A stretch of 64,000 bases of DNA from an uncultured Methanosarcinales archaeon (GCA_964611285.1 CAZSZY010000001.1:1593-65592); one strand, 5' to 3'; shown: positions 747 through 61,280, counted from the stretch's first letter. Numbers and translations: made by a program. The notes: generated by a model not told the origin, from the sequence alone.

Positions 747-796
747 AGTCCTCACCTTTCGAATTGTGTATCGAGCATTTATATATTATTTGGTTA

Positions 797-9457: not shown

Positions 9458-10252
9458 CTAGATACTCAAGCAAGCATTTTTGTTTTCATCAAGGACTAAT
9501 TCACTACAAAAAGTGGTTTCTCCAGCTATAATGAAGGTCATATAGCAATTATCTTTCTGTTCAATTGAAGTTATTTCTTGGCAGAGATTTGGATCATTGT
9601 ACGTTTCTGAAGTAACTTGGTAACAAATATCTCTTTTATTTTCATCTATAACTTCTTGACAAAGCCCTGTCGCTGTTTCTTTGTCTTCCGCTCGTAGCGC
9701 CAATAATAAAGCTGAATCTTTTCTTATTTCGTCTAGAGAAGGCGGCCCCATTTCTGTTTGTTCAAAAACAGGTCGATCTGATGTATTAACGTGTAATTCC
9801 GTCAAATCATCAACTAAAGGTATTTCTCCGCTAGGGGTATTAAATAAATATGCTAAGACTAGAATAAAAAGAACTATTGGCAAAATCATTATTATAGCTA
9901 TGGCGTCGGGTTTTTTCCATTTTTTCCCTGGTTTATGTTCTTTATCTTCGAAATGCTCCGATCCTATTTGTTTAAAAGTTTTATCTAATATTTTCTTTGA
10001 ATATCCTTCATCTTTAAGAGAAGAATATAATTGTTCTGCTTTATATCCTTGAGAAATATAACTTTCAACATAGTCTTTTAAGTCTGGTTGCTCTTTTTCG
10101 AGATGATCATGAGTTATTTCAGCAAATGCTGCAGCTATCATTTCTTTATTATAACCGTGATCTGCTAAATGTTCTTTGAGTTGCGCTCTAGAATAACCTT
10201 TCTGTAACTGCTCAATAATATAGTTTGCTAGCTCACTCACCATTCTTTTCAA
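9458..10252 (-). CDS. Hypothetical single-pass membrane protein with three ~30-aa N-terminal repeats and a Cys-containing C-terminal domain
   Basis: 264 aa. Repeats follow the pattern GY..(A/K)QL...L.D.GY.K..I. A central TM helix is IAIIMILPIVLFILVLAYLF. Confidence 0.35.
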   Translation of the reverse strand: MKRMVSELANYIIEQLQKGYSRAQLKEHLADHGYNKEMIAAAFAEITHDHLEKEQPDLKDYVESYISQGYKAEQLYSSLKDEGYSKKILDKTFKQIGSEHFEDKEHKPGKKWKKPDAIAIIMILPIVLFILVLAYLFNTPSGEIPLVDDLTELHVNTSDRPVFEQTEMGPPSLDEIRKDSALLLALRAEDKETATGLCQEVIDENKRDICYQVTSETYNDPNLCQEITSIEQKDNCYMTFIIAGETTFCSELVLDENKNACLSI

Positions 10253-42458: not shown

Positions 42459-43670
42459 ATGTTTCTTCCAATACAAAAAGCTCTGGAACAAGATGTCACA
42501 CGCGTAGGAGTTAAAGCAAAGCTTTTTGCACAGTTAGAACAACAACTTACATTACCATTTAGTTTGGTTATAAGTAGCGAAGTGTACAACTCATTTCTTA
42601 ATCATAATAATTTGGAAGAACAAATTGTGGAATTATTTGAGCATGGTGATTCACCTGATAAACTTATTGCAGGATTTACTCAACTAGCCCAATTATTTGA
42701 GCAGGCATCTTTTTCTCCAGATGTTATTGCTGAATTAAGAGAGTGTTTTGAATTAGCAGCTCTTGATACAAGTGACTTAAATTCTTTATCTTCTCAACAG
42801 CAAGGTTCTGCTGTGTTAGTGCTTCGTCGAAGTACTGATTACAATGATACGGATGTTACTTGTCCCGGAACTATTTTTACAAAGGAATCATTTTCAGACT
42901 TTCTTCGCGCAGTAAAAAGTTGTATGCTAAGTGCATTCACACCCTCCTCTGTTATTGCAAGAAGGGCACAAAATGTTTTTTCATTCTCTGTTGCAGTTAT
43001 TGTTTCCAGAATGCCAACAATACAAACATGTCTTGAGTCTAGTTTATATTTTCATAAAAACAATATCATCGTACAAAGTTATATGGGTTTTCCAGATCGA
43101 AGCAATATTGTTCCTAAAGATACATTCACATTAAGTGTTGATTTTTTGCGCATTATGGAAGCGAATGTTATAGAACAAACTGTTGTTGCTGTTTTTGATA
43201 AAGTTGCTAATCAAATGCAACATCGAAAGTATGCTCCTGGCGGCTCTTCCCAAACTGTTCCTGATCAAATGATTTTAGAAGTTGGCCGATTAACAAAAAA
43301 GATTAGCACTACGCTCCAGAGCAAAGAACTTTCAGCAGAGTTTGTTGCAAATAACGACGGAGAAATTATTTGTTTTGATGTAGTGTTGGCACCGCGTACC
43401 GGTCAGACGAAAAAACCCTCAGAAGAAAAATCCACGCAGGAAATTCCTAATTCTCAAACTACAAATGAACCTTTGCCGACATTATCTGAAACTCTTGCGG
43501 GCGAGCAAGAACTTGCAAGTGCATTAATTTCATTTCTTGCAAAACATAAATTTTCAAAGTATGGTCCTGCTTTAGATGTTGTTGTCAGAAGTTTAAAGAA
43601 CGAAGTTAACCTCTCGACTTTAAAACAAGGTATCATGATGGCTAAAGAGTTAATTGAAGAAGCGGATTAA
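42459..43670 (+). CDS. Stand-alone PEP-synthase/PPDK N-terminal (PEP/pyruvate-binding, ATP-grasp-like) domain protein (tentative)
   Basis: 403 aa. VLVLRRSTDYNDTD...FTKES and AVKSCMLSAFTPSSVIARR resemble the PPDK_N patterns vavRSSa.aED...sFAGq and vkkvwaSlf..rai.YR. There are no phospho-His or PEP-utilising domains. Confidence 0.35.
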   Translation: MFLPIQKALEQDVTRVGVKAKLFAQLEQQLTLPFSLVISSEVYNSFLNHNNLEEQIVELFEHGDSPDKLIAGFTQLAQLFEQASFSPDVIAELRECFELAALDTSDLNSLSSQQQGSAVLVLRRSTDYNDTDVTCPGTIFTKESFSDFLRAVKSCMLSAFTPSSVIARRAQNVFSFSVAVIVSRMPTIQTCLESSLYFHKNNIIVQSYMGFPDRSNIVPKDTFTLSVDFLRIMEANVIEQTVVAVFDKVANQMQHRKYAPGGSSQTVPDQMILEVGRLTKKISTTLQSKELSAEFVANNDGEIICFDVVLAPRTGQTKKPSEEKSTQEIPNSQTTNEPLPTLSETLAGEQELASALISFLAKHKFSKYGPALDVVVRSLKNEVNLSTLKQGIMMAKELIEEAD

Positions 43671-44611
43671 TTTTTTTCTAACACAATTATTTTTCTTGTT
43701 AAGGATTTATGTATGTAGATTTCAAAAGAATTTTTTATTGTCCAAGATGTTTTTCCAAGCAAGGACTCTATGTCGGTTGTATTTGCTACACCAATTACGA
43801 GTTTTTCTGTTAAATCTTGTGCAAGAAAAAAGAATTTTTCATAAAGAGAATTAATTCCTTCAGTAATAGTTGAGTTTTTCCCATAAGGAAGGTCAGTTAT
43901 AATTGCAAGCGCTTTTTCTTCTAAAGTTAATGCATCTTTTTTTGTAAAATTTGCTTTAACACTGAGTTCTTGGGCGTTCTCACGTGCTTTACCAACTAAT
44001 TCTGCGCTTATATCACTTCCTTGGACATTAAGCCCCATGAGTTTACCTTCTATAACCAGTCCTCCAGCGCCACAAAAAGGGTCGATAAACCCATCACTAA
44101 CAGCTAAGTTAATCATGGCGCGCGCTAGTTTTGGATGCATGCTTGTTGGATGATTATATAATTTCAAATGAGAACGACGAGTATGAGGATTATCATCATT
44201 AAAATAAATTTCTTCAGTTACATAAATAATATCTGTGACCCAAAAGAAAACATAATGATGGGTTGGATGATGAATGTCCACTTCAGGACTTGTTTGTCGG
44301 CCATATAAATTGTCTGCTAAGCTTTTACTTGTTGGTCCTTGACCAGAAATGTTCTCAACAGTGATTTTGAAAGTGTTTTTTAAAACCAAATCTAAAAGTT
44401 CTTCTTCGTGCTGTACATCTCGAATAACTTTTCCTATTCTTCGAGTATAAGCAAGACGCAAAGCAAGCGTTAAATCAATTTCATCTGTTTCTAAAAGTAA
44501 TAGTTCTGAAGAAATAACTATAACTTTGCCAAAAAGAGTTTCTACTTCTGCTTTTGCTAAGTTTGGATGCTCTCCTGAAAGAAAAAAAACATATGCCATG
44601 GTAATCAACAA
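43667..44611 (-). CDS. trm11: Trm11-like tRNA (guanine-N2)-methyltransferase (THUMP + class I MTase)
   Basis: 314 aa. The N-terminus MAYVFFLSGEHPNLAKAEVETL is Trm11/THUMP-like. The MTase motif I is DPFCGAGG and motif IV is DLPYG. Confidence 0.65.
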   Translation of the reverse strand: MLITMAYVFFLSGEHPNLAKAEVETLFGKVIVISSELLLLETDEIDLTLALRLAYTRRIGKVIRDVQHEEELLDLVLKNTFKITVENISGQGPTSKSLADNLYGRQTSPEVDIHHPTHHYVFFWVTDIIYVTEEIYFNDDNPHTRRSHLKLYNHPTSMHPKLARAMINLAVSDGFIDPFCGAGGLVIEGKLMGLNVQGSDISAELVGKARENAQELSVKANFTKKDALTLEEKALAIITDLPYGKNSTITEGINSLYEKFFFLAQDLTEKLVIGVANTTDIESLLGKTSWTIKNSFEIYIHKSLTRKIIVLEKN

Positions 44612-44655
44612 TCAACAGAACCCCAAACGCCGGCTCACCGATAGTTTGCCTCTCG

Positions 44656-45147
44656 TTAGTATTCCCAACCGTTTTCGTCTTCGTGTTTTTTCTTAGCGTA
44701 ATCTCCAAGAATATTTACTACGTAACGAAAAAAGTTTTTTTCAAACTCATTGTACTGAGTGATAATATCAATGTTTACTATTTCTTCTCGGCCATCAATA
44801 GTTGTAGTAATAGAAACGTGTCTTCTATATTCTTGATCTGACACATGAGGTGCTCGATATATTTTTCTCATTAAAAAGAACAAATCAACGTTGTCTTGTA
44901 CTTCTTGTTGCGGATATAATTTTTTCACAAGATTTCCTTTTTCTATTGGTGTGGTTGGTGTTTCTTGTAAATTTTTAGTGTCTTTTGCATAAGCTAAAAG
45001 TGCACTCAGAAGTAAATCATAAGCATCAATAAGACGAGAAAGCGTGTTTATTAAGACATCTGCTGTTCGGGTATATTTAAGACTCACATAAATAAGGTGG
45101 TCTGCTCGTTTGAGTTCTTCGCCTGCATCATCTAAAAGTTCTATCAT
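44656..45147 (-). CDS. Hypothetical helical protein (paralog of the upstream neighbour)
   Basis: 163 aa. Its N-terminal ELKRADHLIYVSL resembles ERAQRQLALADHLL of the neighbour. The genes abut at 45147. Confidence 0.3.
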   Translation of the reverse strand: MIELLDDAGEELKRADHLIYVSLKYTRTADVLINTLSRLIDAYDLLLSALLAYAKDTKNLQETPTTPIEKGNLVKKLYPQQEVQDNVDLFFLMRKIYRAPHVSDQEYRRHVSITTTIDGREEIVNIDIITQYNEFEKNFFRYVVNILGDYAKKKHEDENGWEY

Positions 45148-45611
45148 TAATTGCTCACCGTCAATAGTATTTTTTTCATTAATATTCGCGTTAGCGATAA
45201 AATGTTTTTTAATTGTAATTGATTAAGCACATTAAGTTGATATGCATCGTCTGCTAAAACCATGGTTGATTTTCTTGCAAATTCAACAATACTTTCTTCG
45301 TGTTTTTCAAATAAATTGTTTGTTTGTTCTAACATGTTCATTTCTTGATTGGAGCTAATATTTCGTTCTTTGGTTACATGTTTAAATTTTGCTAATTTAA
45401 CTACAAATGAAGTGTCTTTAAGAACAATTTGCTTTGGAGTAAAAAAAGCAATTGTTGCTGTAATGACATCGTCTTGTGCTTTGTGTATATTGCGCAGTAC
45501 CCCTATAAGCAATTTTGGGTCTTTGGATAAAGGATACGTTGCTGTGAGTAAATGATCAGCCAAAGCGAGTTGGCGTTGTGCTCGTTCTAAGGATGAATGA
45601 ATATTGTTCAC
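45147..45611 (-). CDS. Hypothetical helical protein
   Basis: 154 aa and all-helical. It forms a gene pair with 44656..45147. Confidence 0.3.
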   Translation of the reverse strand: MNNIHSSLERAQRQLALADHLLTATYPLSKDPKLLIGVLRNIHKAQDDVITATIAFFTPKQIVLKDTSFVVKLAKFKHVTKERNISSNQEMNMLEQTNNLFEKHEESIVEFARKSTMVLADDAYQLNVLNQLQLKNILSLTRILMKKILLTVSN

Positions 45612-46246: not shown

Positions 46247-46669
46247 CTAAATCACATATTCACAGTTTTCTTCGCATGATGCAGAACCTGTAGAACCATT
46301 TACTATAATGATGGTTTCATAAGATGCTTCGTCTCGTTTAGAAATAATGATTTGTGCTTTGTAATCATCTCCTTCCCTATACGTGTTAACGAGTGTTGAC
46401 TGCCAGAAATTTGCTTGCACATACCCTTTCACGAAAGATAATGATTTAGCTTCTGCATCGTCTTGAGTAATGCCTAGTTGAACAGTAAACCGACATTGTA
46501 CGGGACTGCTTGCTTCTCGGCCATCAGGACACACATAAATAACTTTATCAGAGGTTACTTGTTGGTTTCCTCCTACACTTCCATCTGCACAAAAATAGAT
46601 TTTTTGAGCTCCACATCCTGATAGAATAAGTAGAGAAAGAAGTGTGAGTGCAAGTAAAACTTTTTTCAT
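46247..46669 (-). CDS. Small secreted lipoprotein
   Basis: 140 aa with lipobox signal LLILSGCGAQ and several Cys. Confidence 0.4.
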   Translation of the reverse strand: MKKVLLALTLLSLLILSGCGAQKIYFCADGSVGGNQQVTSDKVIYVCPDGREASSPVQCRFTVQLGITQDDAEAKSLSFVKGYVQANFWQSTLVNTYREGDDYKAQIIISKRDEASYETIIIVNGSTGSASCEENCEYVI

Positions 46670-47124: not shown

Positions 47125-49041
47125 TTATTCTTCTTTATTGTGAAAATGGTTGAAAAAGACTATTATGATTGCTAGAAGCGGTATAAAGAGTAATGGTAAG
47201 AGAATCTCCCAATCAAATGATTGTTCTGATTCTGCTAAAAGAATAGTGTTTCCTGTAAGAGAAGTGTTTTTGGCAACAGTATAAGTTAATTCTACTGGCT
47301 CATGAACATCTTCTAAGTGCCACATAATAACCGGATCATCTTCTAAGATGATTGGTGCTCGACTAAATGCCAATTCTGAAACGTGCTGCGCAACTTCTTT
47401 TGAAATAACCTCTACAACATCAATTGTTGTTTCATTTTCTTTTGGTTGTACTCTTATTTTTATTTCTGTTGCAATAAATTTTTCGTCGTCTTTGGTGGTC
47501 ACTTCTTTAACAGTAATTTCTTTTTGTATAGTAAAAGTTTCTTTTGCTTTTTCTTGTCGACGAATTACTTCCCCACTATCTTGTTTATCTCTTTTTTGAA
47601 CGATGAGATTAACTTGTTCTTGTTGTTTTTGATACTCTCGTAGTTGGCTAGGTATTTGAGGTTGTTCTAAAGAAACATTTATTTTAGAAAATATTTTTTC
47701 TTCTTTAAATCCAGCCAATTTTTCTTCAAGAACAGTATTTCTCGCCTGAAAAGAATATTCTCGTTCTTTTTTAGTCATTAGTTCTTTAGGGTCTTCAAGA
47801 ATTTCTTTTGTATCAATGGGTTTTGTTTCTTCAACAAGATTAATAACTTCAGATTCGTTCTTTTGTTGTTCTTCTATAACTTCTTCTTCGTTCTGAGTTG
47901 TTTTTACTTCAAATGTTTGAAGCAATTGTTTTGTACTTGTATTATCTGTTAAAGAGAAGGATTCAACATAGAGTTCATATGCTGTTGTGGTAAGAATAGG
48001 TATTTCCCACAATAAGTAAGAGTTCAAAGGTGATGTTTCGGAGCGAATATACGGGTCAAAAAAGATTCCTGAGTCAGAAACAATAAAAAAATGTTCGTGA
48101 TTATCAGTGGATACGGGAAGTGTACTTCGGTAATAATTTGCTTGCACGTTAAACGTTGAATTTTTCAAAACAACTGTTGGAACATTAAATTCGAGCGAGT
48201 GTGTTGTTGGTTCTGTTAAAGTGATATTTTCAGTTACATTAACTGTTTCGTTTGTAGTAGTATTTATTGTTGTATTTACACAAATATTTTGTTGACATTC
48301 TAAATCATATGAACAAATAAACAAATCTTGGTCGCAAGGGTCATTTTCAAATACATATGTTGTTGTTTCTTCAATCTCGCAAACAAGACGATCATACGCA
48401 TCATATCCTGCAGAAATATAACCTTCTTGACAGACACAAGTTCTTAAAATTATGTCTGGCTGGGTTCCTTCCCCACAATGCCACACACAAGTAGCCGGAT
48501 GTGTTTGCATAAATAAAAAAGGTTGGTTACAATAATCGCAAAACCCTTCAAAACAAAAAAGGTCATTTTGACAATCTGCGGTTTCACTGCATTCATCGCC
48601 TTCTGCTGCCAAAACTGGAGCGGTCATTTTAATAGTGAATGAAGTAAGAAAAATTGTGGGTTCTGTTGAATTTTTATAATGAATTTCATATACTGTTTCA
48701 TTAGTTGGATAATCTAGCCACATGCTTGTAACCACGGTCCAAGTTGAATCAGAAGAACTACTTGTTAAAGTGTTATCTCCTATCTTTAAGACTAAAAACC
48801 CTGAAGGTGTAGATACTGTGCTTGTATTTTCTGGGAAAAAATTCGCATGTATTTCCGCAAGAGTTCCTGGAATAATTGCGGAAGGATGAGAATAATAAAG
48901 TGTACCTCCTTGAACAGCTAATTGTTCTTCAACAAAAAAAGGCATAGGGTCTCCAGCATAACTATAATCAGATATAACTAATGCTGAAATTATTAGTAAA
49001 AATACAAAAAGAAATGTGTGAAGCTGTATGTGTAGTTTCAT
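47125..49041 (-). CDS. Large secreted surface protein with Cys-rich EGF-like modules and a C-terminal conserved motif + TM anchor
   Basis: 638 aa with a Sec signal. The C-terminus is DDPVIMWHLEDVHEPVELTYTVAKNTSLTGNTILLAE...LLPLLFIPLLAIIIVFF + NHFHNKEE. Confidence 0.45.
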   Translation of the reverse strand: MKLHIQLHTFLFVFLLIISALVISDYSYAGDPMPFFVEEQLAVQGGTLYYSHPSAIIPGTLAEIHANFFPENTSTVSTPSGFLVLKIGDNTLTSSSSDSTWTVVTSMWLDYPTNETVYEIHYKNSTEPTIFLTSFTIKMTAPVLAAEGDECSETADCQNDLFCFEGFCDYCNQPFLFMQTHPATCVWHCGEGTQPDIILRTCVCQEGYISAGYDAYDRLVCEIEETTTYVFENDPCDQDLFICSYDLECQQNICVNTTINTTTNETVNVTENITLTEPTTHSLEFNVPTVVLKNSTFNVQANYYRSTLPVSTDNHEHFFIVSDSGIFFDPYIRSETSPLNSYLLWEIPILTTTAYELYVESFSLTDNTSTKQLLQTFEVKTTQNEEEVIEEQQKNESEVINLVEETKPIDTKEILEDPKELMTKKEREYSFQARNTVLEEKLAGFKEEKIFSKINVSLEQPQIPSQLREYQKQQEQVNLIVQKRDKQDSGEVIRRQEKAKETFTIQKEITVKEVTTKDDEKFIATEIKIRVQPKENETTIDVVEVISKEVAQHVSELAFSRAPIILEDDPVIMWHLEDVHEPVELTYTVAKNTSLTGNTILLAESEQSFDWEILLPLLFIPLLAIIIVFFNHFHNKEE

Positions 49042-50063
49042 TTTTTCTTTGGAGAGAATTTTTCAAAATAAAGTATGAAAAGAGCAACAAGCGGTATGAT
49101 TAATAATGGTGCAACTAATCGCCAGTTGATATCTGGATGCTTAGGATTGTCTGTTGTTTGTGCTAATAAAACAGTATTTCCTGTTACTTCTGTTGTTTTA
49201 TCGATGGTATAGATTAATTCTATGGGTTGTGTAACATCTTCTAAATGCCACATAATAACGGGATCATCTTGTAAAGTAGTGAATGGTGTGTCTGTTTGCA
49301 AATATGTTGCTCTGCTTGCAAAGTTTTTTGGAATGTGCTCAATAACATCTAATGAAGTTATTAGTTCTTCTGGTACAATGCGCAAAATAATAATTGTTTC
49401 ATCTCTTGTAGTGCCATCTTCATATGTTGTTTGTTGGTACGTTCTTAATTTAGTGAAGGTGGTTAACTTTTCTGCTGTTGACTGGAAATTTTTAATTTCT
49501 TGTAAAGTAAGCGCAGGCATATCGTTTTCAATTAGTAAGTTTCTTGTGTCATCTAAAATATCATCAGATAACTTTTCCAAAGATAAAATCTCTGGTTCTT
49601 GTTCTGTTTGTGATGCTATTGGTTTTGGAGTCACAACCACAGAAAATTTTTTTTCCATTGCAACAGTGTTATTTGAAACATATGCTAAACGATAATTGGC
49701 ATTTGACCGAAGCGAGTCTGCCCAAGAAAGGTAAAAATAGGCATTTTCTTCACCTACATCAGGGCCTGTTGACTCCGGTAGTAATGGCACGCCATCTCGA
49801 TATAAGGTGAAGACGCCAGAACCATATTCTGGATAAAAAAGAATTTCTACAAGAAATAAGTCATCTTCTAAAATAGTGGTTGGATAATCAAAGTAGAGTT
49901 TTCCTTGCAGAATTAGTATTTCCTCTCCAGTCGTAATTAATTTTTGGAAGTCGTCTTCTGCTGCATAAACAGAAGTAACTAAGAGAAGGAAAAATAGAGC
50001 TACAAATAGATGCTTCATCATATGATTACTCAGGAAAGTTTGTTTATATAGTTTTCGTAGCAA
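49038..50063 (-). CDS. Secreted surface protein, paralog of the downstream gene (same C-terminal domain and anchor)
   Basis: 341 aa. The C-terminus is DDPVIMWHLEDVTQPIELIYTIDKTTEVTGNTVLLAQ...LVAPLLIIPLVALFILYF + EKFSPKKK. The start overlaps the stop of the 47125..49041 gene. Confidence 0.45.
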   Translation of the reverse strand: MLRKLYKQTFLSNHMMKHLFVALFFLLLVTSVYAAEDDFQKLITTGEEILILQGKLYFDYPTTILEDDLFLVEILFYPEYGSGVFTLYRDGVPLLPESTGPDVGEENAYFYLSWADSLRSNANYRLAYVSNNTVAMEKKFSVVVTPKPIASQTEQEPEILSLEKLSDDILDDTRNLLIENDMPALTLQEIKNFQSTAEKLTTFTKLRTYQQTTYEDGTTRDETIIILRIVPEELITSLDVIEHIPKNFASRATYLQTDTPFTTLQDDPVIMWHLEDVTQPIELIYTIDKTTEVTGNTVLLAQTTDNPKHPDINWRLVAPLLIIPLVALFILYFEKFSPKKK

Positions 50064-50097
50064 AACGTTTTTATACCATCATAACGGCAAAATAGGT

Positions 50098-51621
50098 ATG
50101 GCTGTTGGTTTGCATAGAAAATTCTTTCAAAAAATTCCCTTTGAAATAGAAGAAATCATCCTTTTTGCAATTATTCTGTTAAATGTGTTTGATGCAATTG
50201 AAGTGCTTCCTTCTGGACTGGATTACGTTAAAAAAATTATTTCTTGGTCTGCATTGGGACTACTTCTTTACAAAGCCAAAATAATAAAATTGTTTACAGG
50301 AGTAGATAGACCTTGGTTAGATGGTATTCTTATTGGTGGATACTTCTTACTTATCATAAAAAATTTGGTTGCGTATGCTACAGGTAGTGTTCAAACAAAT
50401 TCTGCATTCTTACAACCACTCTATATTTTTTTGTTTAATAATTCGGGAATAATAGAACGTACTGGAATGATTATAGGTTTGTGTTTGTTGATTTTTGTTG
50501 CTGTTCATTTGACGTTGCGAGCCAAGATAAAAGCACCTTGCGTATTAGCTATTTTAAAAGAAGCGGATACAGAAATTGATTCCACAAAAAAAGCAGTAAG
50601 AAGATTTGGAAAAGCAATATTTGTTATTTTTATGTTCTTTGTTGTCATCTTTAATTTGGTTATGGAATGGCTTGCAATTGCTATTGATGCTCCTTTGTTA
50701 ATGATTGGTCTTGCAACATATTTGTTTTTTATTATAAAACATAAAAAAAGATTTTTACCAGAATCATTTCTTGCTAAATTTGGAGATTTTGGAGGAAAAT
50801 TTTACGAAGATGTTATTGAACATTTCAAGTATAAACATACTATTCTTCGTGCATTAAGTGGATTATTAGTATTACATTTGCTCACTGATGCATTAAATTT
50901 TATGTGGCCATTTATTTTCAGTGTTGCTGATCCTTTGTATTATAGTTTGTTTTCCTCAGCTCACCCGTTTCTTATCGGGCTATTGCAAACTAATTTCCTG
51001 CAAGTCGGTTTACTACAAGGGCTGGTTGCTCTAAGTATTTACATAGCTAATATTATTGGTTTGCTGGCTTTATTATTGCTTCCTGGCTTGTTATGGATTT
51101 TATTATACAAAAATAAACCATTAATATTAAAAAGAAGAATTATTGCTTTGCTACTGGGCACATTTACTATTATGATAATTAATCCCGTTTTTCTCATACG
51201 ACCTTTATTTGGTGAAGTGTTATTTGGTGTAGATATTATTGGAAGGTCTGTTCTGCAAACAGGTTTACTTATCCCTCTTGTGGTTCTTATTGTTGGTCTT
51301 CTTGTTGGATTGTTTGTATATGTTGTTTCAAAGGAAGTATATTATGAAAAAAAGTTTGTGAAGTTAATTGTTGTAATTGTGCAATTCTTTTTTGCAGCAT
51401 ATAGTGTGATGTTCTTTTTTTCTATAACAACGTATTATACGAGCATTATTCCTTTTGCATTTGCAAGCAATAGATGGCTCTTAGGGTTTATGCTGGTCAT
51501 TCTTTTCGCTTGTACAGTGATTTTTTATGTGCTCTCACTGATAAGTTTTCTATTTGATACGCATCTTCATGCTCAAAAGCATCTTCGATACAAACCTTTA
51601 AGAAGCAAAAAGCATTCGTAA
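50098..51621 (+). CDS. Large polytopic integral membrane protein of unknown function
   Basis: 507 aa with at least 12 hydrophobic helices. It is divergent from the surface-protein pair. Confidence 0.4.
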   Translation: MAVGLHRKFFQKIPFEIEEIILFAIILLNVFDAIEVLPSGLDYVKKIISWSALGLLLYKAKIIKLFTGVDRPWLDGILIGGYFLLIIKNLVAYATGSVQTNSAFLQPLYIFLFNNSGIIERTGMIIGLCLLIFVAVHLTLRAKIKAPCVLAILKEADTEIDSTKKAVRRFGKAIFVIFMFFVVIFNLVMEWLAIAIDAPLLMIGLATYLFFIIKHKKRFLPESFLAKFGDFGGKFYEDVIEHFKYKHTILRALSGLLVLHLLTDALNFMWPFIFSVADPLYYSLFSSAHPFLIGLLQTNFLQVGLLQGLVALSIYIANIIGLLALLLLPGLLWILLYKNKPLILKRRIIALLLGTFTIMIINPVFLIRPLFGEVLFGVDIIGRSVLQTGLLIPLVVLIVGLLVGLFVYVVSKEVYYEKKFVKLIVVIVQFFFAAYSVMFFFSITTYYTSIIPFAFASNRWLLGFMLVILFACTVIFYVLSLISFLFDTHLHAQKHLRYKPLRSKKHS

Positions 51622-51626
51622 GCTTT

Positions 51627-52283
51627 ATGGCAAAGGAAAAGACGATGGAGAAGAAAAGCGATAATCAAGATGTTACATCGTCTGCTACAATTGAGATTGT
51701 AGAAATGTGGGAAGCGAAGAAATTTGCAAAAACCATTGGCCAAGAAACTGCTCAAAATATTCTTGCATTCATTGCTGAAAAGAAGGGCTCTACTGCAACT
51801 GAAATTGCAAAAGGATTACAAACTCCTTTATCCACTGTTCATTATAATCTTAAATCATTAGTTAAAGCTAAAATTATTGATGATAATTCATTTCATTATA
51901 GCAGCAAAGGTAAAGAGGTCGCACACTACGAACTCACAGGAAAAGTTATTGTAATTGTTCCCAAGAAAAGTCCTGGGTTATTAACTCAATTAACAACCGT
52001 TCTTCCTGGCTTATTTATTGCGGGTATAATTGGAGCTATTGGTTTGGGTGCCGCTCTTCTAAAAAGTGGTTCTGCTAGTAAGATAAGCAATCTAGCGGTT
52101 AGTGGCGCGCGAGAAATGAGTACAGACATGGTCACACTTACTAAACAAGCACCCGCCACTCAAACAGTTGTTGAGACAAGTAGTCAAAATACACATATTT
52201 TTGCAGGAATTCTTATTGGTATTGGCACAGTTATTTTAGGTATGATAATTTTCTGGTTCATTAGAAAAACTATTCGTAAGTGA
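51627..52283 (+). CDS. Membrane-anchored winged-helix (ArsR/PadR-like) transcription regulator
   Basis: 218 aa. The HTH segment is NILAFIAEKKGSTATEIAKGLQTPLSTVHYNLKSLVKAKII. There are two C-terminal TM helices. Confidence 0.5.
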   Translation: MAKEKTMEKKSDNQDVTSSATIEIVEMWEAKKFAKTIGQETAQNILAFIAEKKGSTATEIAKGLQTPLSTVHYNLKSLVKAKIIDDNSFHYSSKGKEVAHYELTGKVIVIVPKKSPGLLTQLTTVLPGLFIAGIIGAIGLGAALLKSGSASKISNLAVSGAREMSTDMVTLTKQAPATQTVVETSSQNTHIFAGILIGIGTVILGMIIFWFIRKTIRK

Positions 52284-52324: not shown

Positions 52325-53299
52325 ATGGGTGAACCTATATTTAGAGTGCAGAATGTAAGTAAGTCCTTCGGGACGCACGTCGTACTTGATAATATTAACT
52401 TAGATATTAATTCTGGAGAAATTATTGGTATTATCGGCGCTAGTGGTGCGGGTAAGACAACATTTTTAAACGCACTTATTGGTTTCATTCAGCCCGATAA
52501 GGGAGATATTCTCTTCCGACTGGATCATTTATTATCTTATAGAAATTCATACATTTATCGTTCTGTTTTTAAAAAACAACAATTGGTGAAGAAAGTATAT
52601 GGGTTTGCGTCGCAACAACCATCATTCTATGACGAATTAACAACAAAAGAGAACATGGTTTATTTTGGTTTACTACATAACCTGAACATGGATGCAGTTC
52701 GTTCAAACAGCGAAACATTACTTAATCTTATGGATTTAAAGAAGTCATCTGATATTCTTGCTAAAAATCTCTCAGGTGGTATGGAGCGACGTTTAGATAT
52801 TGCGTGCGCCTTAATGCACGACCCTGATGTTCTTATTCTTGACGAGCCAACAGCAGATCTTGATCCTCTGCTTCGAAATCATATTTGGGAACTCGTTAGA
52901 AAAATCAATCAAAAAGGAACAACCATTATTCTTTCCAGTCACCACTTAACTGAGCTTGAAGTATTGTGCGACAGGGTTGTAATCATTAAAGAAGGAAAGG
53001 TATTGGCTATTGGAAAACCAGAAGAACTCAAAAAGAAGTTTATTATTGAGCAAGAAATTACTATTCAAACAATACCTGGAAACTACAAAAGTTTAGTAAA
53101 AGCAATTCCTAAAAAGAACATTACGCGGATGCGTGTTGCAAATCACTCACTGCATATATACACTGCAAATCCTGAAAGCGTACTCGCTCAAGTATTATCT
53201 GCCTTAAAGACTAGACGAGAAAAATTATCATTCATTAAAGTTACTAGCGCATCACTTGATGATGTATTCATATCTATTTGGGAGAAAGATAAAAAATGA
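52325..53299 (+). CDS. ABC transporter ATP-binding protein
   Basis: 324 aa with Walker A GASGAGKTT, signature LSGGMERRL, Walker B VLILDEPTADLD and H-loop SSHHL. Confidence 0.85.
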   Translation: MGEPIFRVQNVSKSFGTHVVLDNINLDINSGEIIGIIGASGAGKTTFLNALIGFIQPDKGDILFRLDHLLSYRNSYIYRSVFKKQQLVKKVYGFASQQPSFYDELTTKENMVYFGLLHNLNMDAVRSNSETLLNLMDLKKSSDILAKNLSGGMERRLDIACALMHDPDVLILDEPTADLDPLLRNHIWELVRKINQKGTTIILSSHHLTELEVLCDRVVIIKEGKVLAIGKPEELKKKFIIEQEITIQTIPGNYKSLVKAIPKKNITRMRVANHSLHIYTANPESVLAQVLSALKTRREKLSFIKVTSASLDDVFISIWEKDKK

Positions 53300-55245
53300 A
53301 GTTCATAAAATCTGTAATGAAGAATTTCAAAGTATTGTTTCGTATGAAAACAGCTCTTCTTGCAGTAGTATTTGGACCTCTTCTTATCATCTTACTCATT
53401 GGATTTGCATTTAGTTCTAGCGGTAGTGTGCAATTAACCGTAGGATATCATGCTCCTGATGATAGCACACTCACTAATGAATTTATTACTAGTCTTGAAA
53501 GTAGCAATTATTTACTAAAGGAATTTGTTAATGTGGATGATTGTATTAATGAATTAGAGTTGGGTTTATTACATACATGTATTGCGTTCCCCGAAGATTT
53601 TATTATTGAAAAAGACAAACAAAACAACATTATTTTTTATGTTGATAAGTCGCGTATTAATTTAGTCTATACGGTAATTGATGGTGTTTCTGCGCAAATA
53701 GGAATAAAATCCGAAGAACTTAGTAGAAGTTTAACTGAAACATTAACAGAAACATTAACATCTACCGCGTCTCGTGTCGATACAAGTATTGGTTCACTTA
53801 TCAAAGCAAAAAAAGATATGACGGACACTATTGCTGATGCTGATGCTATAGGAACTGATTTAGGAAATGTTGATTTAGAAGCAGTAAGCGTGAGTATAGA
53901 CATAAGTATTGAACGAGATTTTATTGACGACGCTCTTGATGATATTTATGACGAAGTAGACACATTTAATGACGCACATAACGACTCAGCTAGTGCCTTA
54001 CTTTTAGATATTGGAAATTTGACTTCTGTGGCAGATGATAATCTTAGCGCATTACAAACTAAAATTGCGGTTTCATTAGGGAAACTTGATGACGTAGAAG
54101 AAAAAATGACTGCTGCAAAAGAGCTTACTGCTAGCAGTAAGACAAGAATTGAAACTATTCGTACTAAACTCGGCGATATTAATACGGAGATTGATGAAGT
54201 CAAAAAAACACTTGAAGATATTTCTCGAGATATTAATACTATTGAAATTACATCCTCCGATCAAATTATTAATCCTATTTCAACAACTATTGAAACTGTT
54301 TCAGCAGATAATAATCAACTACTAGTATTATTCCCATACGTGCTACTCCTTATTGTTTTATTTGTTGGTTTAATGCTTTCCAGTACATTAGTTGTTATAG
54401 AAAAAAGAAGCAGGGCGTCATTTAGAGTATTTACAACATCTACGCGAGATGAATTTTTCCTCATTTCAACATTTGTTACTGCGTTTATTATTATTGCATT
54501 TCAAGTAACACTCATATTGGGATTGGTAAGTTATTTTGTTGCAAATATTATTACTACTAATTTACTTATCAATATTATTCTTCTTATTTTATCTTCATCG
54601 TTATTTATTATGCTGGGTATGGCTATTGGTTATCTCATGTCATCACAACAAGGTGCGAATATGACTAGCATTTCTGTTGGGGCAATACTTTTATTCATTT
54701 CAAATCTTATCATTCCTTTAGAGAGTATCTCGCCATACTTACAAAAGGTTGCTCGGTTTAATCCTTATGTTCTGGCATCAGAGAGTTTACGACGTTCAAT
54801 TTTGTTTAACATCACCTTTAAGGATGTCATGGTTGACTTGTCAATTCTTTTAGCATACAGCGTAGTTATTTTCATACTTATTGTGGTCTTCCAAAAACTA
54901 TCTAAGATTCGTTACTTTCAACACAATCCACATATAAAGGCAAGAAAAATCAAAGAAGAAGAAAATGGTGTTTGGATTAAAAACAAACTTATTAAGACTG
55001 AAAAAGAGTTTATCGAGCAAGTTCGTTCTTTAGATGAAGAAGAATATACTAAGCTCGTTCGTAAGCAGAGCATGAAAGTAAAAAAGTTCATAAAAAGAGA
55101 CTTAGGAAAACCACTTATTGCAGGAAAAGTGTATAAACTTCAGAAAAAAGAATTGCTTGAGGAGTTTGCAAAAGTTAATCAAGAGATGATTAAGAAAATT
55201 CAGAAAAAACATCACGATAAACATCATAAAAAACACGCTAAATAA
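53296..55245 (+). CDS. ABC-2-type permease with a large extracytoplasmic coiled-coil domain (YhgE/Pip-like)
   Basis: 649 aa. It has an N-terminal TM, a ~300-aa helical ectodomain, a 5-6 TM ABC-2 core, and a Lys/His-rich tail. The start overlaps the ATPase stop. Confidence 0.55.
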   Translation: MKFIKSVMKNFKVLFRMKTALLAVVFGPLLIILLIGFAFSSSGSVQLTVGYHAPDDSTLTNEFITSLESSNYLLKEFVNVDDCINELELGLLHTCIAFPEDFIIEKDKQNNIIFYVDKSRINLVYTVIDGVSAQIGIKSEELSRSLTETLTETLTSTASRVDTSIGSLIKAKKDMTDTIADADAIGTDLGNVDLEAVSVSIDISIERDFIDDALDDIYDEVDTFNDAHNDSASALLLDIGNLTSVADDNLSALQTKIAVSLGKLDDVEEKMTAAKELTASSKTRIETIRTKLGDINTEIDEVKKTLEDISRDINTIEITSSDQIINPISTTIETVSADNNQLLVLFPYVLLLIVLFVGLMLSSTLVVIEKRSRASFRVFTTSTRDEFFLISTFVTAFIIIAFQVTLILGLVSYFVANIITTNLLINIILLILSSSLFIMLGMAIGYLMSSQQGANMTSISVGAILLFISNLIIPLESISPYLQKVARFNPYVLASESLRRSILFNITFKDVMVDLSILLAYSVVIFILIVVFQKLSKIRYFQHNPHIKARKIKEEENGVWIKNKLIKTEKEFIEQVRSLDEEEYTKLVRKQSMKVKKFIKRDLGKPLIAGKVYKLQKKELLEEFAKVNQEMIKKIQKKHHDKHHKKHAK

Positions 55246-56829: not shown

Positions 56830-57375
56830 TTATGGCTTTTGGTCCAGTGCTTTAAGAAGTTGCTTTATAAAGACCATATCATATCCTTGCGTGATAAGCA
56901 TTTGCGACATTTGGTCCGGCGTCCATCCTGCTTGAACATATTGTCTCATGGTTGGCAGAATTTTATTAACTGCCTCAATTGTTATATGCTTATGATGGTG
57001 TTTTCTCCACATAATTAATCCAATTAAAGAGATTAAGAGAAGTACTCCAATTATTCCAACAATTAAAACCAAGTTGTTAGTATACATATCTGTTGAGAAA
57101 TTATTAAGATTGTTTTCTATTTCGTCTTCAGGAGGAGTGTAAGCTTCTGGAATATAAATTCTGTCTGGAGTGGATGTTTGCACTTCCGCTAGTTCGGAAA
57201 CATTACTATAATATGCTGGCGCGACATTGCTTTCACAAAATGCATAATAATCATCACCAAGTTCTGCTATTGCTCTCTCGGGGGTATCACATATAGAAAA
57301 GTCAAAAGCAATAACTACAAAAGAGAAAAGAAAAAAGAATAATACTATCAAAAGTATTTTTCTTAAATATTGCAT
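56830..57375 (-). CDS. Small membrane protein (two TM helices)
   Basis: 181 aa. Its start overlaps the stop of the giant upstream gene. Confidence 0.3.
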   Translation of the reverse strand: MQYLRKILLIVLFFFLFSFVVIAFDFSICDTPERAIAELGDDYYAFCESNVAPAYYSNVSELAEVQTSTPDRIYIPEAYTPPEDEIENNLNNFSTDMYTNNLVLIVGIIGVLLLISLIGLIMWRKHHHKHITIEAVNKILPTMRQYVQAGWTPDQMSQMLITQGYDMVFIKQLLKALDQKP

Positions 57376-60300
57376 ATTTGACCTCTCGTATCACCTAAGT
57401 GCGGTGCTCCATAATAACAACAACTTGTTGTTGTTTGCCGAGCGTCTTCAGCGGCAGTCCATTTACGAGTTCCCATTTCAAAATGCCACCATTCTTTTCC
57501 ATAACGAACAAAACCATGTTGACACATAAATGATTCTTGTTGCACATAATCTATTTGTTTTGATGTTGCTAAGTCAACTATTTGAATATCTATTGCGCCG
57601 CCAACTTGGTGTGGACAAAGCTTTGCTTTAGGATCATCCTTACTTCCAGGATTACAAGCCATACTACTATCAAATCCTGATAACTCCCAAAGTTTGTATT
57701 GAATATCCCATGAACGATGTGCTTGTGTAATTATCATCGTCCAACCTTTTTGCTTGAGCTCTGGCGATAATTTTTTTAATTCTGTCACGAGTTGTTCATT
57801 GCCTGCACATATTTTTCCTACACTCGTTTGTGTTTCATCACAAATAACGTTCGGAATATCTGTTATTTGATATAGTGGACTAACTTTATCTAAAGGATTT
57901 ACAAATCCCGGATATATTTTTAGATTGCTTGCTGTTTTTGGAATTAAATCATCTGTTGTTATGAACATATTTTTGTTGTGTATACAAATGAAATTTGCTG
58001 CATAGTTGCTTGTGGTAAATTGTGTTCCTGCCTTAAGCAAGCTCAGTTCTGTATCTGAAAGTGGAAGAGGACTGTTTTGCGAGTCTAGAAATTTAAAAGA
58101 TGAAGTTTGAGTTGATGTTCCGTTGTTTCCATAGTTATCAACAGGTGTTATTCGGTAATAATAATCAATATTATCTTCAAAGGATTTTCCATAAGGACTT
58201 TTTCCATTAACTTTAAAGAAATATTTGTTCACTTGCCCTGATTGCACACCAAGTTGTTCAAGTATCGCGGGATATTGTTGACTAATTGGTAATTCTAATG
58301 CTGTTGCCACAAGAACGTTTTGTTGTCCTACATTTGTTTTAAAAGACACATCCTCTGAAATTTCAATAATAAAAGAATATATTTCTTCTTGATTGGATGG
58401 CGTTTCCCACTTCAGAAGTATTGTTGAAGAAAGGCCTAAGATGTCCAGTTGCCCAGTAAAAGGAAGAGATTCTATAGATGAAGGATTGACTAATGGACTA
58501 TTAAAAATGGTTTGAGAATCAAACCCCAAAGGATTCAGTGATGGTGTTTCTAAACAAACACCAGTAGTTGAAGATGTAGCAGGCCGAACTTGCGGTGGTT
58601 TGACATCATTTAAGTAGACACTAAATTTGAGAATATCTCCTGTAGTAAGTATTTCTGCTTGAAAACTAAAATAATGTTTATTGTCTTCACAAGTAAGATG
58701 TGTAACATTTTGTTGATAAGGAAGCCATGTCATTGATGAATATGTTTGTTTGAGAAGGCCGAACGCGAGAACGTCTGTTCCTGTTTGAGAACCTGCAGGA
58801 TTTGTTGGTGTAATAATATTCCAAGGATTTGTAGTGGTAGATATTTTTCCCGCGCCCGTATCATCCACCCATAACTTTGCATCATCTATATCTTGGGTGT
58901 TTCCTGTTATATTAAGAATAATTGCTGATTGCGATAATGAAAGATTACTTGTTGGAATTGCGGGATTAAAAGGGAATTCGTACACGAATTTTCCTTCTGC
59001 AGTAAATGTTCCATTTGAAAAGAATATCATGTTTTGATGTTTTTTTCCCAATCCTCTATAATCAGTAACTATTGGACAAATACAATCTTTTTGTTCGTTA
59101 AATCGACAATCCAAAACTTGCTCCACCACATCATCTGCTAAAGGATTGTCTTCTTTTAATCGAGTAATAATAATATTTTTTGCATGTTTTCCATTAAACT
59201 GTTGCATTTTAGCAAGCACACAAGTTTCTAAATCATTATCACATGTTTTAAGCTCAGGAATGAAGTCTTGAGAGATAAAATTCATTGTTGCCAAATCCAT
59301 TTTTGTTGATGTTGAGAATGCAGGTGTAAATGTTAATTCTGAAGTAATATGTAGTGATGAGAGTGCTGATAAGTCATCCCAGTTTGCATCAAAATATGCT
59401 CTCCACGAGCAATATAATCCTTTCGCTCGCTCTGCATACTCGCATGTTTTGTCTTGCACAAAATATTGTTTGCCACTACCTATGACTTTTTCGTAACTTC
59501 CTTGATAAATACAGAATATACAATTCCAAAATGTTTCAGGGGTGTTTTTGTATGCTGAGCATTCTTCGTATTTTCCTGTGACAGCATCAACACCATCCAA
59601 TGCTTCTTTGTATGCTCCTAAATCTGTTTTTGCAGTACAACTTGTTTGACTTTCGTCAGATACAACCCACTGTCCTGTACAACCACAACCTGCAGCGCAA
59701 GATAACGGCCAACCACAACCAGTTAACGAACTTTTTTGTTGGCTAGTACATTTATCATTTTTTCCTAAGCTTGATTCTAAAACCATGTGCGTAACTAAAA
59801 GTGCAGGGTCTACCCCAGAATCAATAGCTGTTTGTATTGCTAAATCGTAGTATGTTAATTGTGGTGATTTGAATGGTTTAGAACTAAGTTGATTAATATA
59901 ATTCTGTGATGGTGCTGATACTGTTGTTTGTGCGTCACACCATTCAAAAGGTCCAATAAATGGAGGGATGACTTGTAAGTCAGGTGGTAAGAGAGCATTT
60001 CCACTTGCCTGATAAGAAGGTCTAAATATTGCTTCTATTTTGGTGTCTAAACCTGATGCATATTTTTCTGGTAAGAATTCTTTTACCAAACCTTTTTTTG
60101 GATCAGCATGAATAATAATTGGTTTGCCTGCTATCTTATCTGTTTCAATGTATATCGCTATATAAATTCCGCCTCCAGGAACATCGGAACCGTCTTCTCG
60201 CACTCGTTGTTCGTCTCGCAGGAAAAGTATGTCTCCTGGCTCTGCGTTTGTTAAAAGATATGCAAGCGTGCAGGTTTTTTGTTTGCAGACAAGTGATTGT

Positions 60301-61280
60301 GCTTCTGCTTGTTGTAAGTATGTCGCTTCTCCTTCTCGATTTGTAAAAAAAGTTATATTGGCATGTTTTGCTACCCACCACACCCATCCTGCGCTATCAA
60401 ATCCTGGCGGAAGCAGAGTTCGTTGAGTAAATCTATCATCAGGAATGGTTAATCTTGAAAAAAATGTATCTGTTAAAGAAACAATTGAAGATGGTTGCGT
60501 GGGTGTTGTTGTTGGCGCTACGTATCCTGAAAGAGTTCGTACATCTTGCGGACAATAAGGTGATTCTCCATTGACAATATAAGCGTATTTTTTATTTTGT
60601 GTTTTGTAAGTCTCGTAAAGTAAATTGGTAACTTGTGCAAAACATTCGCCTGTTGAGCACGTTATTGGTTTTTCTTTTGTGTAAAAACCAAGCGCGGTTT
60701 TAGGATATTGTTTTCTAATTAAAAAAAGATCTTTGCAAGTATATGTTTTTGCTTGATCAGTTGTGCTTTTTGAGATGAAGGGGAGAGAAACTTCTTCTCC
60801 TGATGCTTGCAGAGCAAGTTCTTGCGATGATAGTTGAGCAAGATTTAAATCGTATAAGAAATAAAGTGGAGTATCTCCTGGATAATGTTGTAGATAGTTA
60901 AAGAAGAAGTCATCAAAATAATTTTTTATAGTATTAGAATATTTGGGCATACAGTCTTTTGTTTTTGAATTATAATTTGGATACAAATAATTTCCGCAGG
61001 CAGAGGGCACCGTATCGCCTGTTTCTGTGAGTTGTTGATAAACACCAGCACTTTCTAGAAACGCACTTCTTGTTAATGTTGCTGAAAGGTCAGCTGCTTT
61101 GTCTATATACGTGTTTGCCGCCGCGGCTTTTTCTACCTGTTGTAAGATAGTATACTGATTTACACCTATATCATTCTTAACAGTTGTCAATGAGTTATTT
61201 GAAACGAGAAGAGCAACTCCTATCAAGAAGAAAAGCGCGACAAGTGGCCATTGTACTCCTCCTTTTTTTCCTCGTATCAT
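57363..61280 (-). CDS. Giant secreted multidomain protein with a pilin-like N-terminus, an SLT/lysozyme-like segment, Ig/FN3-like repeats and a C-terminal VanY/peptidase-M15 (D,D-peptidase) domain
   Basis: 1305 aa. The N-terminus is MIRGKKGGVQWPLVALFFLIGVALLV. The SLT-like segment is GVDPALLVTHMVLESSLGKND. The C-terminal M15 motifs are ITQAHRSWDIQ, CPHQVGGAIDIQ (HxxGxAxD) and GKEWWHFE (ExWH). Confidence 0.6.
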   Translation of the reverse strand: MIRGKKGGVQWPLVALFFLIGVALLVSNNSLTTVKNDIGVNQYTILQQVEKAAAANTYIDKAADLSATLTRSAFLESAGVYQQLTETGDTVPSACGNYLYPNYNSKTKDCMPKYSNTIKNYFDDFFFNYLQHYPGDTPLYFLYDLNLAQLSSQELALQASGEEVSLPFISKSTTDQAKTYTCKDLFLIRKQYPKTALGFYTKEKPITCSTGECFAQVTNLLYETYKTQNKKYAYIVNGESPYCPQDVRTLSGYVAPTTTPTQPSSIVSLTDTFFSRLTIPDDRFTQRTLLPPGFDSAGWVWWVAKHANITFFTNREGEATYLQQAEAQSLVCKQKTCTLAYLLTNAEPGDILFLRDEQRVREDGSDVPGGGIYIAIYIETDKIAGKPIIIHADPKKGLVKEFLPEKYASGLDTKIEAIFRPSYQASGNALLPPDLQVIPPFIGPFEWCDAQTTVSAPSQNYINQLSSKPFKSPQLTYYDLAIQTAIDSGVDPALLVTHMVLESSLGKNDKCTSQQKSSLTGCGWPLSCAAGCGCTGQWVVSDESQTSCTAKTDLGAYKEALDGVDAVTGKYEECSAYKNTPETFWNCIFCIYQGSYEKVIGSGKQYFVQDKTCEYAERAKGLYCSWRAYFDANWDDLSALSSLHITSELTFTPAFSTSTKMDLATMNFISQDFIPELKTCDNDLETCVLAKMQQFNGKHAKNIIITRLKEDNPLADDVVEQVLDCRFNEQKDCICPIVTDYRGLGKKHQNMIFFSNGTFTAEGKFVYEFPFNPAIPTSNLSLSQSAIILNITGNTQDIDDAKLWVDDTGAGKISTTTNPWNIITPTNPAGSQTGTDVLAFGLLKQTYSSMTWLPYQQNVTHLTCEDNKHYFSFQAEILTTGDILKFSVYLNDVKPPQVRPATSSTTGVCLETPSLNPLGFDSQTIFNSPLVNPSSIESLPFTGQLDILGLSSTILLKWETPSNQEEIYSFIIEISEDVSFKTNVGQQNVLVATALELPISQQYPAILEQLGVQSGQVNKYFFKVNGKSPYGKSFEDNIDYYYRITPVDNYGNNGTSTQTSSFKFLDSQNSPLPLSDTELSLLKAGTQFTTSNYAANFICIHNKNMFITTDDLIPKTASNLKIYPGFVNPLDKVSPLYQITDIPNVICDETQTSVGKICAGNEQLVTELKKLSPELKQKGWTMIITQAHRSWDIQYKLWELSGFDSSMACNPGSKDDPKAKLCPHQVGGAIDIQIVDLATSKQIDYVQQESFMCQHGFVRYGKEWWHFEMGTRKWTAAEDARQTTTSCCYYGAPHLGDTRGQICNI

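Follow-up and report, generated by a model that had tools for sequence, protein, structure and literature searches.

The PGF-CTERM/archaeosortase A and PEP-CTERM/exosortase systems both unite a C-terminal element, common to diverse secreted proteins and consisting of one transmembrane (TM) helix and a basic tail, with a genetically linked polytopic membrane protein, one membrane protein corresponding to several proteins that bear the element. PGF-CTERM and PEP-CTERM signals have a tripeptide at the TM boundary as their signature and, like LPXTG signals, lie at the extreme C-terminus of all substrates, where TM helix and tail are removed; exosortases and archaeosortases (ArtA/EpsH) possess an invariant catalytic Cys together with conserved Arg and His residues. 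Here we describe a locus resembling these systems in layout, situated in a 64,000-nucleotide stretch of archaeal DNA (GCA_964611285.1, CAZSZY010000001.1:1593-65592; hereafter the window), in which two adjacent secreted proteins of 638 and 341 aa share a C-terminal module and a divergently transcribed gene encodes a 507-aa polytopic membrane protein. In-frame fusions and frequent gene adjacency in other genomes lend good support, at the level of sequence, to a functional link between module and polytopic protein (Rosetta-stone partners), and on balance we favour an explanation in which the module serves for docking and anchoring and a surface complex has the polytopic protein as its membrane core.

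Several differences set this locus apart from the PGF-CTERM and PEP-CTERM systems. Its conserved part is not a boundary tripeptide but a folded immunoglobulin (Ig)-like domain of about 100 aa together with an IP core in the middle of the TM helix, many members extend beyond the module by over 40 residues, fusions of module and partner occur, and this partner, of about 500 aa, shows neither a conserved Cys nor a match to the exosortase/archaeosortase models. As an analogy, the architecture is closer to that of single-pass Ig-like ancillary subunits of polytopic proteins. In basigin/embigin-MCT and MmpS-MmpL, comparable by analogy only, a membrane-proximal beta-sandwich with a single TM helix is likewise paired with a multi-pass partner, and the MmpS and MmpL genes are adjacent, although MmpS is oriented opposite to the module proteins. 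The polytopic partner described here has no sequence or fold relationship to MCT (MFS) or MmpL (RND) and, unlike those, apparently serves many ectodomains. By description, the self-anchoring surface and S-layer-anchoring proteins SlaB of the Sulfolobales and the MJ1_0707-type proteins of Nanobdella aerobiophila (bioRxiv 10.1101/2023.10.27.564410) also resemble the module proteins; found in DPANN and other archaea, they too combine a signal peptide, Ig-like folds and many sequons with a TM helix at the C-terminus, but neither a conserved stalk-plus-TM module nor a dedicated polytopic partner has been reported for them. A literature search returned no description of the module or of the module/polytopic pair, and we consider the two families, which have no annotated relatives, to be an uncharacterised two-component surface-protein system, so far seen in Woesearchaeota/Nanoarchaeota.

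The shared C-terminal module

The open reading frames (ORFs) of 638, 341 and 507 aa are all present at the coordinates given in a preliminary description of the window, the two minus-strand ORFs overlapping each other, and GC content is about 35% across the whole window. The features concerned, with their evidence, are the following (HMM, hidden Markov model; AF2, AlphaFold2).

47125..49041, minus strand: 638-aa secreted surface protein (ORF list and HMM matches)
47128..47571, minus strand: C-terminal module of the 638-aa protein, about aa 491-638 (BLASTP and profile match)
47143..47211, minus strand: TM helix of the 638-aa protein, WEILLPLLFIPLLAIIIVFFNHF, with the conserved LIPL core (sequence and family conservation)
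49038..50063, minus strand: 341-aa ORF, probably 327 aa in reality (ORF, 31 orthologues, AF2, Foldseek)
49041..49499, minus strand: C-terminal module of the 341-aa protein, about aa 189-341 (BLASTP, profile, AF2)
49056..49124, minus strand: TM helix of the 341-aa protein, aa 314-336 (DSSP helix H314-336 of the AF2 model)
50098..51621, plus strand: 507-aa polytopic membrane protein (homologues, alignments, AF2 model)

BLASTP aligns the C-termini of the 638-aa and 341-aa proteins with 60/153 identities (39%, E=2e-29), confirming that they share a C-terminal element, as had been noticed before. The preliminary description had taken this element for a short motif in proteins otherwise unrelated over most of their length. 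Instead, the shared region spans about 140-200 aa and comprises a helical hairpin, an Ig-like beta-sandwich, a linker, the TM helix and a basic tail, and a weak BLASTP match (E=4e-4) joins the N-termini as well. Since an HMM of the orthologue family of about 330 aa, made without the window sequences, matches both ends of the 638-aa protein, at aa 10-146 (8.5e-9) and aa 437-637 (1.5e-55), the larger protein is a paralog of the smaller one with an insertion of about 290 aa. This insertion is rich in Cys and N-X-S/T sequons (14 of each) and lies, in the order of the protein, after a signal peptide and an N-terminal Ig-like domain and before a Glu/Lys-rich linker and the C-terminal module, the latter made up of Ig-like domain, linker, TM helix and a basic/His tail. 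Neither protein has a Pfam match, nor an NCBIfam match at E<=1; the preliminary description, too, had seen no match to PGF-CTERM, PEP-CTERM or LPXTG signals in the sequence of the module.

To model the fold, AF2 was run on the 341-aa protein with 31 orthologues (pLDDT 90.6). The model contains a signal-peptide helix and two beta-sandwiches, Ig-like domain 1 (aa 47-160) and Ig-like domain 2 (aa 201-302), with a helical hairpin (aa 167-200) between them, followed by a linker, the TM helix (aa 314-336) and a KKK tail. The motif originally noted (DDPVIMWHLEDV..IELIYT..TGNTVLLA) corresponds to strands 262-265, 269-277, 281-287 and 296-302 of the second sandwich, whose strands, from 201 to 302, are modelled at pLDDT >90. 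All 31 Foldseek matches in the PDB at E<=1e-3 are tandem Ig-like proteins (S-layer protein SbsC, KIT, complement components). As modelled, the extracellular part of the module is an Ig-like beta-sandwich; it has no Pfam domain match, and a sequence-profile search of the PDB with the module family gave nothing meaningful.

A full HMMER search of 1.84 billion representative proteins with a profile of three module sequences gave 591 clusters (50% identity) at E<=1e-3 and 157 at E<=1e-10, which answers the question, raised at the outset, whether the module occurs beyond these two genes. Word-indexed searches with the module alone returned 1 and 4 matches, such an index being weak for short divergent queries. 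The 638-aa protein matches the module HMM at E=1.3e-45, and a profile search of the window proteins found two copies only. Throughout the family the module occupies the C-terminus or its vicinity, in proteins 80-1447 aa long, and the longer of these bear PKD, MopE-like, transglutaminase, thrombospondin type 3 repeat, NosD/beta-helix or Big domains; FG-GAP-like repeats were recognised by eye in one fused protein. The family consensus is …IEEIPKE-A-S-SEI-F---P-(I/V)LEDDPLIMWHF--V-E-V-LSYEV----TGNTV-LAE…; next comes a linker, variable in sequence and 10-25 residues long, often with a Trp at its end, and after it LLPLLLIPLI--IIIYFSRFSPKKK. Column conservation peaks at EIPK and DDP-I-W and is low in the linker; at the mid-helix LIPL core of the TM segment it rises to near the level of the domain core, which is unusually high for a simple anchor.

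The module does not always end the protein. In 84 of the best 150 matches no more than 10 aa separate its end from the C-terminus, in 27 the distance is 10-40 aa, and in 39 (26%) more than 40 aa follow. A helical domain of about 37 aa (L--YI---L--G-----I---L---GW----I--AF, the GW position varying as G(W/Y)) is found past the TM helix in 15 of these 150 and recurs both in the linker and past the polytopic domain of fused proteins (8 fused ORFs; in the L038 ORF, for example, at aa 774-810 and 1360-1394); its sole Pfam similarity is a weak RecX_HTH1-like match. Because residues beyond the module are this frequent and the small domain recurs, also in fusions, the sequences imply that the TM helix is retained in the mature protein.

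The polytopic family and its genetic link to the module

A species scan with one genome per species yielded 70 loci encoding the polytopic protein, usually one per species, and these loci (1.11 Mb in total) were scanned with the module HMM and the polytopic HMM. In 10 of the 70 species (L032, L035 (second copy), L038, L039, L041, L045, L051, L052, L067 and L071) both are encoded by a single ORF, in the order passenger, partial module, complete module with TM helix, linker and complete polytopic domain; the linker is about 4-55 aa long and is placed in the cytoplasm by topology. ORF listing confirmed the fusions in L038 (7541-11980, 1479 aa), L045 (2300-11641, 3113 aa) and L052 (5567-11974, 2135 aa), and a further fused ORF was present in a metagenome contig (L097). 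In a neighbour-joining tree of the polytopic domains eight of the fusions form one clade and that of L035 (L035b) falls in its sister clade. As the L045 fusion lies far from this main clade and has a different, very short linker, fusions arose at least twice independently. Assembly artefacts were rejected as their cause: the ORFs are continuous in 10 species assemblies, several of the contigs measure 150-780 kb, and the linkers are conserved. L035 (JAHWIN010000036.1) carries, besides an unfused polytopic gene (204-1685, plus strand), the fused module-polytopic gene of about 1500 aa on the opposite strand, 72 bp downstream; with a fused and an unfused copy in this genome, the family can exist as paralogs in one genome.

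About 21 more loci, scattered over the tree, have a module gene directly beside the polytopic gene (<400 bp), in divergent, convergent or tandem orientation; adjacency is seen in four different gene arrangements and in many clades. Only 3 module genes were found farther than 2.5 kb away, in 667 kb of flanks. By chance about 0.6 adjacent loci are expected (P~1e-25, conservatively 3e-17), and adjacency exceeds the background density about 30-fold or more. It is borne out in another metagenome-assembled genome (MAG) by the neighbouring locus tags K9M74_04910 and K9M74_04915. In the reverse test, which started from 24 metagenome module loci, the polytopic gene was divergent and adjacent in 2 and fused in 1. 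The functional link proposed above rests on these data, that is, on 10 fusions in at least two clades and about 21 adjacent loci against the 0.6 expected, and the co-occurrence of polytopic protein and module outside the window, which the preliminary description had asked about, is thereby documented.

The 507-aa protein has 94 homologues in a 90%-clustered database, all named ones belonging to Woesearchaeota or Nanoarchaeota. Because the homologues are annotated as Candidatus Woesearchaeota, Nanoarchaeota or Nanobdellota, the sequence evidence indicates that the source of the window is a DPANN archaeon. Many GTDB records that carry the polytopic gene (L009, L012, L019-L021 and others; TPA binchicken MAGs) are titled 'uncultured Methanosarcinales archaeon', and record L014 is titled 'Candidatus Aminicenantes bacterium'; these titles are probably placeholder names or due to mis-binned contigs.

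None of the 94 homologues has a Pfam domain, and the window protein itself has no Pfam match and no NCBIfam match at E<=1. When 40 family members were searched one by one, no exosortase, archaeosortase, rhombosortase, CPBP or other informative match was obtained in Pfam or in NCBIfam (E<=1), apart from one isolated 60KD_IMP match. The AF2 model is all-helical (pLDDT 85.3, pTM 0.84) and has no structural match in the PDB, including none to rhomboid, Rce1 or S2P, and a sequence-profile search of the PDB with the family gave nothing meaningful. Identification as a GT-C glycosyltransferase, an O-antigen-ligase-like protein or a YidC-like insertase was rejected for want of family matches (the single 60KD_IMP match, 1/40, aside) and of fold matches.

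Residue conservation was taken over 67 polytopic sequences. As the preliminary description had considered possible, conserved polar residues are present: S49 (95%), S148 (98%; Cys in the window protein), N186 (94%), E190 (98%), D197 (94%), H260 (97%), T263 (92%), H289 (92%) and N318 (94%), with D264 also among them; some of the predicted TM helices contain conserved acidic, His and Asn residues. The best Arg column is R169 (88%). The conserved catalytic Cys that had been suggested as a thing to look for was not found, the best Cys column in these sequences reaching 18%, and because of this the protein is, on conservation grounds, not an exosortase-type Cys transpeptidase. Codon 148 (50539-50541), inside a conserved K-PS motif, encodes Cys in the window where 98% of the 67 homologues have Ser. 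From the topology of the fusion proteins, the N-terminus of the polytopic domain would be cytoplasmic, and from this topology and the clusters of basic residues (positive-inside rule) D42, K45, K46, S49, E190, D197 and D264 would lie at or near the outer face, on the stalk side, in a conserved polar cluster to which H260 would also belong.

A distant paralog, P0095 (774 aa), is encoded on a 1.07-Mb ENA contig that also carries P0025; it aligns with the family over aa 14-503 (hhalign probability 99.8%) and bears an additional C-terminal Rce1-like/CPBP domain (PF02517, aa 656-769). This single case hints at a tie between the polytopic family and membrane proteolysis.

Docking core, processing enzyme or transporter

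The docking explanation, which we think somewhat more probable than not, can be put as follows. Woesearchaeota and Nanoarchaeota join one module to many different ectodomains, and these variable parts would thereby dock onto a conserved polytopic core of about 500 aa. The module begins with a membrane-proximal Ig-like sandwich, which contains the conserved EIPK and DDP-I-W strands. A short linker of variable sequence leads from there to the TM helix, whose (L)IP(L/I) core is conserved at mid-membrane, and a basic tail on the cytoplasmic side would act as stop-transfer signal. Helix and stalk would be in stable, presumably physical, association with the polytopic protein, and the helix would be kept in the mature protein and not cleaved away. 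The 327-aa and 638-aa paralogs of the window would serve the 507-aa core as cognate ectodomain subunits, and paralogs and core would be expressed from a shared divergent promoter region. The fusions point to joint action, most simply in a physical complex. A retained, docking helix is suggested by the folded and conserved juxtamembrane domain, the conservation of the TM sequence, the residues beyond the module and the 37-aa domain in fusions, and a cleaved sortase-type signal is disfavoured.

A number of observations weigh against this docking explanation. Across related species the adjacency counts are not fully independent; this weakens the P value, yet the conclusion stands, since one clade differs from another in its arrangement. 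About 38 of the 70 species loci have no module gene within their flanks, and all 8 metagenome module loci with flanks of at least about 5 kb lack a nearby polytopic gene. Given these long-flank module loci and the many polytopic loci with no partner nearby, there are several module genes to one polytopic gene, a relation that would also suit an enzyme with many substrates. Finally, the near-invariant polar residues (S49, E190, D197, H260 and others) are more numerous than a passive scaffold needs. The core itself might be a scaffold, a transporter or an enzyme.

That the polytopic protein is a dedicated processing enzyme acting on the module, either a new sortase-like transpeptidase or an intramembrane protease, seems rather unlikely to us. 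Such an enzyme would cleave at or within the TM helix and free the ectodomain or re-anchor it, for instance to a lipid. The preliminary description had proposed a sorting or processing enzyme at this position; its idea of a link between the neighbouring genes is well supported (fused in 10/70, adjacent in about 21), whereas the sortase-like enzyme finds no model match and no conserved Cys. An enzyme would nevertheless fit the ratio of one polytopic gene to several module genes, and the near-invariant S49, E190, D197 and H260 have a composition compatible with a Ser/His/acid site, possibly at the outer face. The conserved Pro in the middle of the TM helix is a helix-destabilising feature, and residues of this kind are typical of the TM segments of intramembrane-protease substrates. 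P0095 with its appended Rce1-like/CPBP domain points in the same direction, and the CPBP/Rce1-like proteases (PF02517) are themselves polytopic with conserved Glu and His in TM helices, but 0/40 polytopic members match PF02517 and the CPBP domain of P0095 lies outside the homologous region.

The module itself argues against cleavage. No conserved cleavage motif is present in the linker, the conserved 'motif' lies inside a folded domain, and the residues (in 26% of the best 150 members) or the 37-aa domain (in 15) following the module are seen, to our knowledge, in no known sortase-type signal. A fusion with the putative enzyme, which arose at least twice, would demand single-turnover cleavage in cis. 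To these points are added the low Cys conservation (18% at most in any column), the missing match to any of the exosortase, archaeosortase and rhombosortase models that the preliminary description had recommended for a search, or to any CPBP or other protease model, and the absence of rhomboid, Rce1 and S2P from the structural matches. When 32 module sequences were compared with curated sorting-signal models, one PEF-CTERM match at E=0.03 and one LAVTG match at E=0.054 were obtained, which is noise. Of the tripartite layout on which the analogy with PGF-CTERM, PEP-CTERM and LPXTG signals had been built, helix and basic tail are present, but the conserved residues lie 25-50 aa upstream in the folded domain and in mid-helix (IP core), and at the TM boundary the linker varies save for one Trp. 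The module is not always terminal, and the TM helix is continuous with the partner in fusions. The analogy is not supported by the sequences, and neither HMMs nor a conserved Cys nor terminal position, nor apparently a boundary motif, speaks for membership in the PGF-CTERM/archaeosortase or PEP-CTERM/exosortase type. It is conceivable, though rather unlikely, that the polytopic protein founds a new class of membrane-embedded enzymes whose fold would be new and whose Ser/His/Asp-Glu site would face outward. If so, it would recognise the Ig-like stalk and the Pro-kinked TM helix in many surface proteins, which it would then process or anchor anew, and DPANN archaea would have a protein-sorting system of their own, with no relation to the sortase, exosortase or rhombosortase families.

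More doubtful still is the possibility that the polytopic protein works as a transporter or channel to which the module proteins, single-pass and Ig-like, contribute accessory or receptor subunits, with ectodomains that capture ligands or host surfaces and are coupled to uptake or export, possibly together with the ABC-2 system encoded downstream. The fusions and the adjacency would speak for it just as they do for docking, and the acidic, His and Asn residues conserved in predicted TM helices would suit it. The polytopic gene, moreover, often sits among housekeeping genes, usually once per species, which fits a core role under reduced metabolism. The ABC ATPase and ABC-2 permease genes do lie directly downstream on the same strand in 8/70 loci, but this is a minority of the loci and might reflect inherited synteny.

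That there is no specific partnership at all, the module being a standard stalk and anchor and its proximity to the polytopic gene a matter of inherited synteny or of co-regulated envelope genes, is very improbable: whole regions (NAC, Sec61beta, ABC genes) are indeed syntenic among close relatives and over half of the polytopic loci have no nearby module gene, but in-frame fusions that keep both complete parts in 10 species with at least two origins strongly disfavour it, as do the adjacency in four arrangements and many clades, about 30-fold or more over background, and a TM helix sequence conserved well past the needs of hydrophobicity.

Gene neighbourhood and surface organisation in DPANN archaea

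Upstream and downstream of the polytopic gene the window contains the following further features.

50022..50097, no strand: 76-bp intergenic region between the divergent genes, containing two TATA-like boxes (sequence read)
51627..52283, plus strand: 218-aa protein, HTH_20 domain at the N-terminus and TM segments at the C-terminus (Pfam match)
52325..53299, plus strand: ABC ATPase (gene tables, locus survey)
53296..55245, plus strand: ABC-2-type permease (gene tables, locus survey)

The true start of the 341-aa ORF is most likely M15/M16 (ATG at 50021), giving 327 aa, because the public gene calls are 327 aa long, the alignment with the orthologues begins at this Met and about 22 bp upstream of it there is a TATA-like box. 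Measured from this corrected start, the gap to the divergent 507-aa gene is 76 bp, the same as in the public gene calls. The two boxes, 'tttatata' (50043-50050) on the side of the minus-strand gene and 'tttttata' (50068-50075) on the side of the polytopic gene, are about 22-25 bp from their respective start codons, and from its sequence the region is a candidate bidirectional archaeal promoter that would give leaderless mRNAs. The gene for the 218-aa protein begins 5 bp past the polytopic gene and may be co-transcribed with it; a recognisable homologue of this protein was found downstream in 4/70 loci of the locus survey. The 8 species loci with the ABC pair belong to two parts of the polytopic tree, and the pair may be part of the system or a matter of inherited synteny.

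Other genes of the window were recorded as well. The 37-aa domain occurs twice at the N-terminus of a 264-aa protein (9458-10252, minus strand), which continues with a TM helix and a Cys-rich C-terminal region. A 140-aa protein (46247-46669, minus strand) has a bacterial-style lipobox (…LLILSGC) and a weak LPAM_1 match, and a homologue of it lies upstream of the polytopic gene in 5/70 loci. A block of a UPF0020/THUMP methyltransferase gene and genes for two small proteins (about 155-165 aa) adjoins the polytopic gene divergently in the distant relatives L008 and L103; its counterpart in the window lies at 43667-45611, and in the clade of the window the module genes, the lipoprotein, Sec61beta and NAC stand between this block and the polytopic gene. 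A 1305-aa protein (57363-61280, minus strand) with weak VanY, peptidase M15 and glucosaminidase matches, whose counterpart in L004 bears an NLPC_P60 match, looks like a giant peptidoglycan-hydrolase-like hydrolase in an archaeon.

DPANN archaea such as the Woesearchaeota are mostly uncultured, many are thought to be host-attached, and the organisation of their surface proteins is barely known. The system described here amounts to a lineage-wide rule, in which one conserved stalk-plus-TM module bears variable, adhesin-like ectodomains and is linked, through gene fusion and proximity, to one conserved membrane protein without known relatives. With the module HMM, the surface proteome of these organisms can be catalogued from metagenome data. 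The polytopic protein, a confidently modelled membrane fold (pTM as given above) that has no solved counterpart, is a specific candidate, open to testing, for the core that their surface or attachment apparatus would have in the membrane.

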